Positions 9,001 to 11,170 of a stretch of 11,170 bases of DNA are shown one piece after another. Origin of the DNA: a virus; the UHGV virus genome UHGV-1780727; one strand, written 5' to 3'. The number at the start of each line of letters is the position of its first letter. Positions within the stretch are counted from its first letter, which is position 1. The position numbers were made by a program.

Positions 9001-11170
9001 GCGTGTTTTGACATGAAGCCACGAAATGCTTCCTCACCAGCCTCCCGGGCTTTACGGTACTCCCGGTACAGAAAGGCCTCATCCACCGAATAACCGAGAT
9101 TCGGGTTAACCATGGCGAGGTTTTCCATCAGCAGGTGAGCCCCGCTTTCCACCATTTCAGGAGGATGCTCAAAAATCACCGGCAGAAAGTGCGGATCATG
9201 AATTTTGCCGTCACGGACATCCCGGGCATACTGCAGTTTCTGTCTGAACACCCCGGCGGGCGGTTCATTCGACTGGGTGGTCGTATACACCACAAACCCT
9301 TCCGGACGGGAGGCAAGCCCGCCGATGGCTTCACGTAGCATGTCTTCCGCCTTGTACTGCTTGCCAAACAGCCACAGTTCATCAATCAGTGTCCCCACGG
9401 ACTTGATACCGGACACCGTATTCGGATCGGCTGCCACCACCTTCAGGGTGGTGTCCGTCACCCGATGGGTGATGGTCCGGATATGTGTCTGCACCTGACA
9501 GAGGTCATCCAGATCATCGTCCCGTCGTACCATATCCCTGGCAGGGTTGAAGGCGTTAGCCGCCACCTCCACGGTCGGGGCCAGAATGGTGTAGCCCGCC
9601 GCCTGCCGCCAGTTCAGTAACAGCGCCGTCATCATGATCCCCGCAGCCAGCGTGGACTTACTGTTTTTCTTGGGGATAAGGATAAACACTTCCTTGATAT
9701 GGCGAACACCGGTCTGCGCATCGTAGGAGCCAAACAGGGCCGCCACCAGGTCAAACACCCACGGTGCACAGGACTCCCCGAATGTCGGGCTACCCGGTGC
9801 ATCCACAATTCGCAGTTGTTTAAAAATCGCCAGTGCATGTGCAGCCTGGTCCGGATAAATCGGAGCCGGAATAATCGACAGCCCCTTTTTCAGGCGCTCT
9901 GCCCAGTCCGGGCAGGCCGTGCTCCACACAGGTATCATCCGTTGCCCTCATTATCATTATTCACCACCAGGCGGGGTGGTGGTGGCACCGCAAAACGGTT
10001 AGCCGCTTTTTTCGCCGCGTCACCTTTTGCCGATTTTTTACCGGCATCCCCTTTTTTATGGTGCGTGAACTGCGCCAGCTTATAAGCCGCATCCAGCGCC
10101 AGCCTGGGGTCGGTATTAATGTTCTCCACCAGAAGACGCCCCATCGCTTTCACCGGATCGGGAAGACCATCCTCCATATATTCAATACCAGGAGACATCA
10201 CCGCGGACGGTGGCATCTCCGGATTGTTTTCGTCCGGCTGTGGTATTGCAGCCGCCTCACGGCGACGGGGTTTATCCTCCTGCTCTGATTTTTTCTGCCG
10301 GTAAACAGGAACCTCATCCACCTCCACCGTCTCGCATTGTTTACGGGCTATAAACGCAAGCACCTCCGGATCTTTTGCCAGCTGCGAGCCTTTAACCCTG
10401 GCGGTCTTCGCCGAATAACCGGCGGCAATGGCTGACGCTGTTTTGTTTTTCCCGGACATGAGCGCCAGCGCAAATTTTCGTTTTTGCGTTGTCAGCACAG
10501 CCTCCTCCCGGGTCCAGAACGCACTCAGCCGGGTATGGTTCAGCCCATTTTTCCCGGCGTCTCATGCCGCAAATGTTAACTGCTGCCTGGTTAACATTTG
10601 CTGAAAAAGCCAGTTAACATTTTTTCCGCACAACAAACTGAATAATAAAGATAAAAACCGCAAAAATGCCCGGACAGCCAGTTAACATGTTAACTGCCCT
10701 GAAACGGGAATTTTTTCTCTGCGTGAGAGGGGGGGCGGTGTCCAAAGCGATCTTTTTTTACGCCGGATGATACCCCCCCCGGGTCGGGTTACAGTCCGGT
10801 GATGTCGTCCGCTCTGCCACTACCTCCGGACACCTCCGGCAGCGTCGGGTCTGGCATACCACTCGCCGCTTCACGAGCAGACTTTTGTCGATGGCATTCG
10901 GTACAGAGCGTCCAGAGATTCGTCTCCTCATTACCACCACCGAACTGAAGTGCAATTCGGTGATCGAGTTCACTGTCACAGAGGTCAACCACACGACCAC
11001 AGAGACAGCACTGCCCGGCATCCCTGAGCCAGATATGACGCTTGAGGGAAACACGTGCACTGCCACTGACACGACGCTGTTCACCCTTCAGAATATTCAC
11101 CCGTCGGGTATTCAGTGTTTTGATTCTGCTCTGGAGCTGTCTCTTATACACATCTCCGAGCCCACGAGAC

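Follow-up and report, generated by a model that had tools for sequence, protein, structure and literature searches.

A putative small-terminase recognition array beside the cohesive end of Shiga-toxin-type phages

In phage lambda, the DNA between the site of cutting (cosN) and the gene of the small terminase (TerS), gpNu1, contains the R3-I1-R2-R1 elements of cosB. Read directly from the lambda sequence, cosN occupies positions 1-12 and is followed by CGTTTCC (53-59), an AT-rich block, GGAAACG (114-120) and CGTTTCC (155-161), with the ATG of Nu1 at 191; these elements are the R sites to which gpNu1 binds. Lambda and phage 21 provide the paradigm for packaging specificity, in which the repeats pair with the DNA-binding domain of TerS and cosN is common. 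In SPP1 and SF6, which are headful (pac) packagers of Bacillus, the pac region is bent and holds repeats of short boxes that the TerS protein, G1P, recognises. The TerS of HK97 reads a single 15-bp site, a G and A-tract at +15 to +29, with no array (PMC11331095), and in the Pseudomonas cos phages PaP3 and NV1 a helix-turn-helix (HTH)-type TerS binds cos DNA sequence-specifically, the PaP3 protein binding a cos oligonucleotide of about 20 bp (PMC7672466). The selection of viral DNA by small terminases is a matter of continuing debate, and its mechanisms are, according to the PaP3 study, not fully understood (PMC7672466). Here we describe a repeat array at positions 10569-10696 of the window, that is, the whole 11,170-nucleotide stretch of viral DNA that was analysed (UHGV virus genome UHGV-1780727). 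The array quite probably represents the cosB-like part of a phage cos site and is a putative TerS recognition array; its five 8-bp half-sites (ATGTTAAC) form a palindrome, which about 58 bp of AT-rich, presumably bendable spacer separate from a single site and an inverted pair (Table 1). We favor a docking site for TerS because the array adjoins a mapped genome end and because its motif changes in step with the DNA-reading helix of TerS.

The likeness to lambda cosB is apparent in several respects: (i) short repeats in both orientations lie between cosN and the small-terminase gene; (ii) an AT-rich block, in the window phage a candidate bend or IHF element, separates the first element from the rest; (iii) the length from cosN to the TerS gene is 190 bp in lambda (Nu1) and 229 bp in the window phage; and (iv) specificity would, for the window phage, likewise come from the pairing of repeats with the TerS DNA-binding domain around a shared cosN. 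The two systems also differ. The window TerS gives no BLASTP alignment with gpNu1 and falls in Pfam Terminase_2, so that the likeness is functional and the proteins are not homologous; the half-sites are 8 bp long and arranged as palindromes, whereas the lambda R site measures 16 bp; and the window phage has a 10-nt 3' overhang and an HNH gene at cos, in contrast to the 12-nt 5' overhang of lambda. The reading that preceded this analysis, made from the sequence alone (the sequence-only reading), had placed the locus in an HK97 frame. That frame fits the gene order HNH-cos-terS-terL, and the locus further resembles HK97 in the Pfam families of its large terminase (TerL), in a G and A-tract a few bp inside the cut and in the 10-nt 3' overhang (HK97, PMC11331095; Lys8385Vzw, PMC7946995). 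It does not fit the TerS, which is not of the HK97 gp1 family (the two proteins show no similarity, and the HNH proteins are barely similar, E = 0.07), nor the layout of the site, since HK97 has 49 bp between cosN and terS with one site and no repeats; lambda cosB is the better analogy. With SPP1/SF6 G1P the window TerS shares the Pfam family and a common N-terminal HTH fold (Foldseek: SF6 G1P DNA-binding domain 4zc3, TM 0.84, rmsd 1.6 Å; 2cmp, TM 0.82), but phages of the window type have unique cohesive ends, as reported for Lys8385Vzw, and an HNH partner. The HTH domains of PaP3/NV1 TerS are also structurally similar to that of the window TerS, if weakly (Foldseek ranks 4-10), but neither a multi-copy half-site array nor natural specificity variants are described there.

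All five exact copies of the half-site (GTTAACAT/ATGTTAAC) fall within 10573-10694 and none occurs elsewhere in the 11 kb, against an expectation of 0.15 for the whole window; a GTTAACAT count of 5 was reached by 0/200 shuffles. The core GTTAAC is present seven times in the window, five of them in 10575-10694 (shuffle mean 1.26, with 0/200 shuffles reaching 7). This agrees with the sequence-only reading, which had pointed out five GTTAAC-core motifs in a short stretch with an AT-rich block between them. Its perfect inverted repeat of 11 bp and its duplicated 12-mer are likewise real but were understated in size: the inverted repeat has fully (100%) complementary 12-nt arms, GCAAATGTTAAC at 10569-10580 and GTTAACATTTGC at 10590-10601, across a 9-nt gap, and the duplication is a 13-mer, AGCCAGTTAACAT, at 10608-10620 and 10676-10688. 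It had also placed the array correctly between the HNH and small-terminase genes, these genes lying on the minus strand. The AT-rich block at 10621-10678 is plausibly a bend element. All array variants retain its T-tracts and a TTATTCA..TTGTT block, and its place is conserved as well; the IHF-like core ATTCAGTTTGTTG within it (10643-10631, one mismatch to WATCARNNNNTTR) is at chance level, with 11 such matches in the window against 8.6 expected.

At 96-98% identity the window region matches 93 records of long-tailed E. coli prophages and phages of the Stx1a, Stx2a and Stx2c kinds, among them BP-4795, 2851, 1717 and the genus Pankowvirus, and the phage that hosts the array appears to be of the Shiga-toxin (Stx) type. 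In one near-identical phage, Lys8385Vzw, a 10-nt 3' cohesive end, CGCCCCCCCT, has been mapped with PhageTerm (PMC7946995). The terS of that phage is 99.5% identical to the window terS, and its record begins 229 bp upstream of terS; the record ends in ...CACCGCCCCCCCT (also read ...GGACACCGCCCCCCCT) and restarts with CTCACGCAGAG (CTCACGCAGAGAAAAAATTCCCG), which matches the mapped cos. The genome ends that the sequence-only reading had wished to see mapped would fall, by way of this published end, 31 bp from the array. Counting positions (marked +) on the minus strand from the first base after the 10-nt cosN sequence, the array spans +32 to +155 and terS starts at +230, so that the array fills the interval between cosN and terS. 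All relatives share the cosN core, GGACACCGC(G)CCCCCTCTCACGC. The 10-nt 3' ends are known from Lys8385Vzw and not from the window's own phage, and Lys8385Vzw is the sole physical mapping because almost all relatives in the databases are prophage-derived records; the record of phi330 is permuted arbitrarily inside terS and the Burkholderia records start at terS.

Indirect, comparative evidence for TerS as the reader of the half-sites comes from loci in which the motif has changed. In L084, L085, L172, L174, L170 and L181 (loci are given L numbers and TerS variants P numbers) every copy is ATGTTTAT or ATGTTTAC and GTTAAC is absent, on the same architecture. In L084 and L085 (TerS P0024), for example, the array reads TATAAACATGTTTATA, ATGTTTATACCC and AAATGTTTAC-N9-GTAAACATTT, with zero GTTAAC; ATGTTTATACCC takes the place of site 3 and AAATGTTTAC-N9-GTAAACATTT that of sites 4 and 5 in phages whose TerS recognition helix reads KSARC. 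The KSARC helix is always found with ATGTTTAY (ATGTTTAT or ATGTTTAC), without exception in array-bearing loci, and the helix KTARV with ATGTTAAC in all of about 80 viral contigs of the window group as well as in L082, L171, L086 and L175-177. Among these, L086 (TerS P0034) retains the GTTAAC core in altered flanks (GGTGGTTAACATGTTAACCACC), and L175-177 combine KTARV with TTAAC on a spacer that is just 77% identical; L174 combines KSARC with TTTAY. When the motif type was predicted from the TerS sequence before the loci were fetched, 3/3 predictions held (P0019 and P0033, both KSARC, with ATGTTTAY; P0009, KTARV, with ATGTTAAC). The KSARC helix also occurs in L181 (330-500) on a short TerS backbone of Klebsiella/Enterobacter type; its expanded array, a palindrome TATAAACATGTTTATA followed by three or four direct repeats of ATGTTTATACCC before a terS that still starts ATGTTAACA, seems to have been acquired independently. 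Even in relatives with a single palindrome, the noncoding left half follows residue 32 of TerS, being TTAAC with T32 in 7/7 loci and TAAAC with S32 in 15/16.

Comparison of L171 (ATGTTAAC) with L172 (ATGTTTAY) narrows the field of candidate readers. Their HNH proteins are 100% identical and their left flanks up to cosN 99% identical; the C-terminal part of terS and the first ~180 nt of terL are 93-100% identical, and terL further in is 85-98% identical. Between cosN and about codon 140 of terS the DNA has been exchanged, spacer identity falling to 32-63%, and the motif type differs. In the first 66 residues the two TerS proteins (P0009 and P0019) differ at three positions, T25E, T32S and V35C. 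As the HNH and TerL proteins are identical or nearly so despite the different motif types, this cassette swap rules them out as motif readers and specificity determinants, and TerS is the only linked candidate.

The location of the three residues in TerS is in keeping with such a role. By its Pfam score and N-terminal HTH fold the window TerS is a member of the Terminase_2 (SPP1/SF6 G1P-like) family, and its residues 1-56 form an HTH DNA-binding domain (AF2 pLDDT 92-96 for the N-domain). In the AF2 model helix 2 spans residues 19-25 and helix 3, the recognition helix, residues 33-41; on the basis of this model and its superposition on 4zc3, residues 25, 32 and 35 are predicted to lie where the first HTH helix ends and where the recognition helix begins, in the N-cap and first turn of the latter.

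Conservation in more distant relatives suggests where the half-site came from. In Enterobacterales loci whose TerS is 33-49% identical overall with a nearly identical N-terminal domain (L007-L026, L178-L180), the core GGACACCGCGCCCCCTCTCACGCACAGAAAAAATTCCCC is kept and is followed about 20 bp on by a Shine-Dalgarno (SD) sequence and the terS start ATG TTA ACA at +40. In these short-type relatives terS opens with ATGTTAACA at +40, and there is one motif copy only, overlapping the start codon; a noncoding GT[GA]T[AT]AAC together with the first 8 nt of terS makes up an imperfect palindrome. Since terS starts ATG TTA ACA at +40 in distant relatives, ATGTTAAC appears to have been, ancestrally, the first 8 nt of terS, and the palindrome at 10679-10696 would correspond to the ancestral start region (SD spacer, then ATG TTA ACA). 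In the Stx-phage lineage the palindrome is still at +40 and is now perfect, about 190 bp of extra DNA carries three more copies, and terS starts GTG CTG ACA. Across five spacer lineages of the ATGTTAAC type, which share at most 81% identity except for the window and L082 (94%), the half-site core columns are invariant in 36/38 cases against 97/208 of the other columns (Fisher p = 6e-9), and the half-sites would seem to be under selection because their cores are invariant while the flanks diverge. The scan of viral contigs yielded only relatives that are 91-99% identical, and it therefore informs conservation and not diversity. Conservation in related prophages, which the sequence-only reading had named as a check, is thus seen in two forms: the array layout is kept, and the copies switch type together. 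Copy number is not fixed, since L086 and L171 carry a sixth half-site, added by an 11-bp insertion between sites 3 and 4 (AAATGTTAAC[CT]GGTGTTAACC).

We envisage that the N-terminal HTH domains of an oligomeric TerS would read the half-sites, the spacer perhaps bending in between, and that TerS so placed would position TerL, together with the HNH protein, at cosN 31 bp away. The nucleases would then cut in a stagger that leaves the 10-nt 3' overhang, and packaging would run rightward through terS. The central proposal of the sequence-only reading, that the repeats are cosB-type small-terminase sites beside cos, is supported by comparison: by the mapped cos, by the covariation with TerS and by the cassette swap.

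Some observations weigh against this interpretation. For the physical position of cos there is a single PhageTerm analysis, made on one near-identical phage. One palindrome over the terS start suffices for most relatives, so that cos cleavage in the family as a whole does not require the expanded array, and the G and A6 tract next to cosN is conserved more widely than the array and could, by analogy with HK97, be the primary TerS contact. L014 is the one exception to the residue-32 rule. Finally, the array and the TerS DNA-binding domain are encoded less than 250 bp apart, and part of their association could be linkage and not function; that it is not pure linkage is argued by the concerted change of the copies, by the invariance of the cores in diverging flanks and by the recurrence of the link between residue 32 and base 6 across clades.

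Other explanations of the repeats can be set against the same data. It is conceivable, if improbable, that the sites are TerS operators that serve mainly to autoregulate terS (and terL), the ancestral palindrome lying across the gene's own ribosome-binding site and start codon. A single palindrome does overlap the SD spacer and terS ATG in at least 20 short-type relatives, and the Stx-phage array keeps it at the same +40. In the window lineage, however, 190 bp separate this palindrome from the real start codon downstream, and the gene strand has no promoter-like site; a DNA site at a start codon would not, moreover, block translation, and the fixed distance from cosN is explained by packaging as well. 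The regulatory and packaging roles are compatible with each other. The scan for sigma-70-like promoters found none on the gene strand and one 9/12 match on the opposite strand, made of the motifs themselves, and the late promoter or activator site that the sequence-only reading had offered as its alternative was rejected for this reason. We think it just as doubtful that the repeats are bound by some sequence-specific protein other than TerS, for instance a late regulator of the phage or a factor that phage or host encodes at an unlinked place. The contigs of L171 and L172 are short and the comparison covered linked genes only, which leaves such a factor some room, but no host factor can account for motif copies that switch in concert between phages of E. 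coli, the sole linked protein change across the switch is the three TerS HTH residues (HNH and TerL being identical or nearly so), the same residue-to-base association recurs in distant genera, and there is no promoter present to regulate.

The tract next to cosN calls for separate consideration. If TerS contacted the G and A6 tract in the manner of HK97, an accessory role would be left for the ATGTTAAC copies, or they would be vestiges, duplicated from the former 5' end of terS. This would accord with the HK97 TerS site cited above, with the near constancy of the tract (apart from occasional single-base changes CAGAAAAAATTCCC is kept in every relative, from Serratia to E. coli, and in a satellite-like island described below) and with the identity of ATGTTAAC and the first 8 nt of terS in short-type relatives. 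We nevertheless hold it to be distinctly unlikely, as the window TerS has a classical HTH domain and no relationship to HK97 gp1, vestigial copies would neither stay invariant in diverging flanks nor change in concert, and the tract stays the same between phages and satellites whose TerS HTHs differ, which would be expected if the shared TerL/HNH side reads it. This constancy makes membership of the shared cutting module more likely for the tract than a role as a second TerS contact. There is, lastly, very little to be said for a coding or RNA function of the region. The ATG at 10688, in its ancestral SD context, opens a frame of 24 codons for a small hydrophobic peptide (MLTGCPGIFAVFIFIIQFVVRKKC), but the frame is not conserved among variants (MLIPF* in L171, 14 aa in L084) and this small open reading frame (ORF) was rejected. 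A structured leader or RNA family was likewise rejected, an Rfam search of the array region giving no match at E <= 1 and the fold z-score of -0.97 indicating no unusual RNA stability.

A TerS docking array that varies together with its reader invites a broader proposal, which we put forward tentatively and would rate somewhat below the docking site itself, as a possibility with slightly more against it than for it. The DNA from cosN to about codon 140 of terS may be a mobile cassette that sets packaging specificity by a simple, natural code of recognition, in which TerS residues 32 and 35 (T/V or S/C), and possibly 25, would read bp 6 (and 8) of the half-site (ATGTTAAC or ATGTTTAY). Phages and the satellite-like island would share one cosN/HNH/TerL cutting module and exchange or evolve the cassette, each thereby restricting packaging to its own DNA, in E. 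coli hosts with up to seven such prophages. The array and cos segment is present in 2944 copies in 1243/5426 complete E. coli genomes, with up to 7 per genome and 6 copies on plasmids; the TTTAY type is found in about 26 E. coli genomes. Because the segment occurs up to 7 times per genome, many co-resident prophages share one packaging specificity, and it is probably this element that selects, among co-resident prophages, defective prophages and satellites, those that become packaged and transduced. Its place in the packaging origin of long-tailed Shiga-toxin phages gives it practical relevance. The natural series of specificities, in which three residues of a well-predicted HTH are set against one or two bp repeated in five sites, also makes recognition of DNA by TerS testable. 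The cosB-like array carries no annotation and is apparently undescribed: it is annotated in none of the 12 records sampled among the 1243 genomes, and a literature search found no paper with the palindrome string and none on cosB together with Shiga toxin.

An island of about 9 kb at tRNA-Pro bears on the exchange of cassettes. It is represented by L173 (3151-12000; E. coli GCA_012987925.1) and also by L087-L089 (1372-1500), and it encodes an integrase, a primase/helicase (AAA_25), a 162-aa terS homologue (P0059, whose cluster has 243 member sequences on 112 contigs) and a protein of 307 aa that looks like a major head protein. The island shares the G-run and cosN core of the phages (GGACACCGCCCCCCGTCTCAT). 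It has direct repeats of its own, AAAAGTTACAC in two copies before terS, a divergent HTH (EKTARVKGWQL) and a TerS core domain of Stx-phage type. It is probably a satellite that hijacks the TerL, HNH protein and capsids of these phages.

Table 1. Features of the array, of cosN and of the adjoining genes in the window; + positions are counted from the cut as defined in the text.
Feature	Position	Strand	Remarks
terL, large terminase	8277..9938	-	Pfam TerL_ATPase and TerL_nuclease
terS, small terminase	9935..10498	-	Pfam Terminase_2 (PF03592), 35.8 bits against a cut-off of 26.1; GTG start
Sites 4 and 5, inverted pair GCAAATGTTAAC-CAGGCAGCA-GTTAACATTTGC	10569..10601	-	cores +131 to +138 and +148 to +155
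Site 3, single half-site AAAAAATGTTAACTGGCT	10608..10626	-	core 10620-10613, +108 to +115
AT-rich spacer block, 58 bp	10621..10678	-	GC 37.9% against 56.9% for the window; T5 tracts at +62 and +71
Sites 1 and 2, perfect 18-bp palindrome CAGTTAACATGTTAACTG = CAGTTAACA/TGTTAACTG	10679..10696	-	+32 to +49 from the cut
G then A6 tract	10711..10717	-	+11 to +17 from the cut; candidate proximal terminase contact
cosN, 10-nt 3' cohesive-end sequence CGCCCCCCCT	10728..10737	-	identical to the Lys8385Vzw cos by PhageTerm (PMC7946995); 31 bp from the palindrome
G8 run, left of cosN	10773..10780	-	conserved in all relatives and in the satellite island
HNH endonuclease gene	10789..11136 and beyond	-	Pfam HNH PF01844, 29.7 bits against a cut-off of 21.4; 5' end lost to contig end and adapter

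On the far side of cosN from the array, a run of G7-G8 lies about 45 bp upstream of the C-run and is kept in L008-L026, L082-L089 and L171-L181; we infer that the G8 run is part of the nuclease side of the cos region. These runs and the elements CCGG...GATCGC...GGACACC between the G8 run and the cosN C7 run (10729-10735) are kept in every relative and in the satellite, and may be the part of cos that TerL/HNH read, or a cosQ-like element.

The minus strand carries all window genes, which are, by Pfam, HNH, then after a 290-bp spacer terS, terL, a protease-capsid fusion and portal. An SD sequence, GGGAGGAGG, precedes terS at 10509-10501. The order within 4700-9938 is terL, a 645-aa fusion of prohead protease and major capsid protein (Peptidase_S78 and Phage_capsid) and portal; in HK97 it is terL, portal, protease, capsid. 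In relatives the HNH protein has 121 aa and is encoded directly upstream of cos. The final 34 bases of the window (11137-11170) are a Nextera adapter, CTGTCTCTTATACACATCTCCGAGCCCACGAGAC, and because of this the HNH ORF lacks about 18 nt at its 5' end; a GTG at 11151 that is listed mechanically as a start falls within the adapter.

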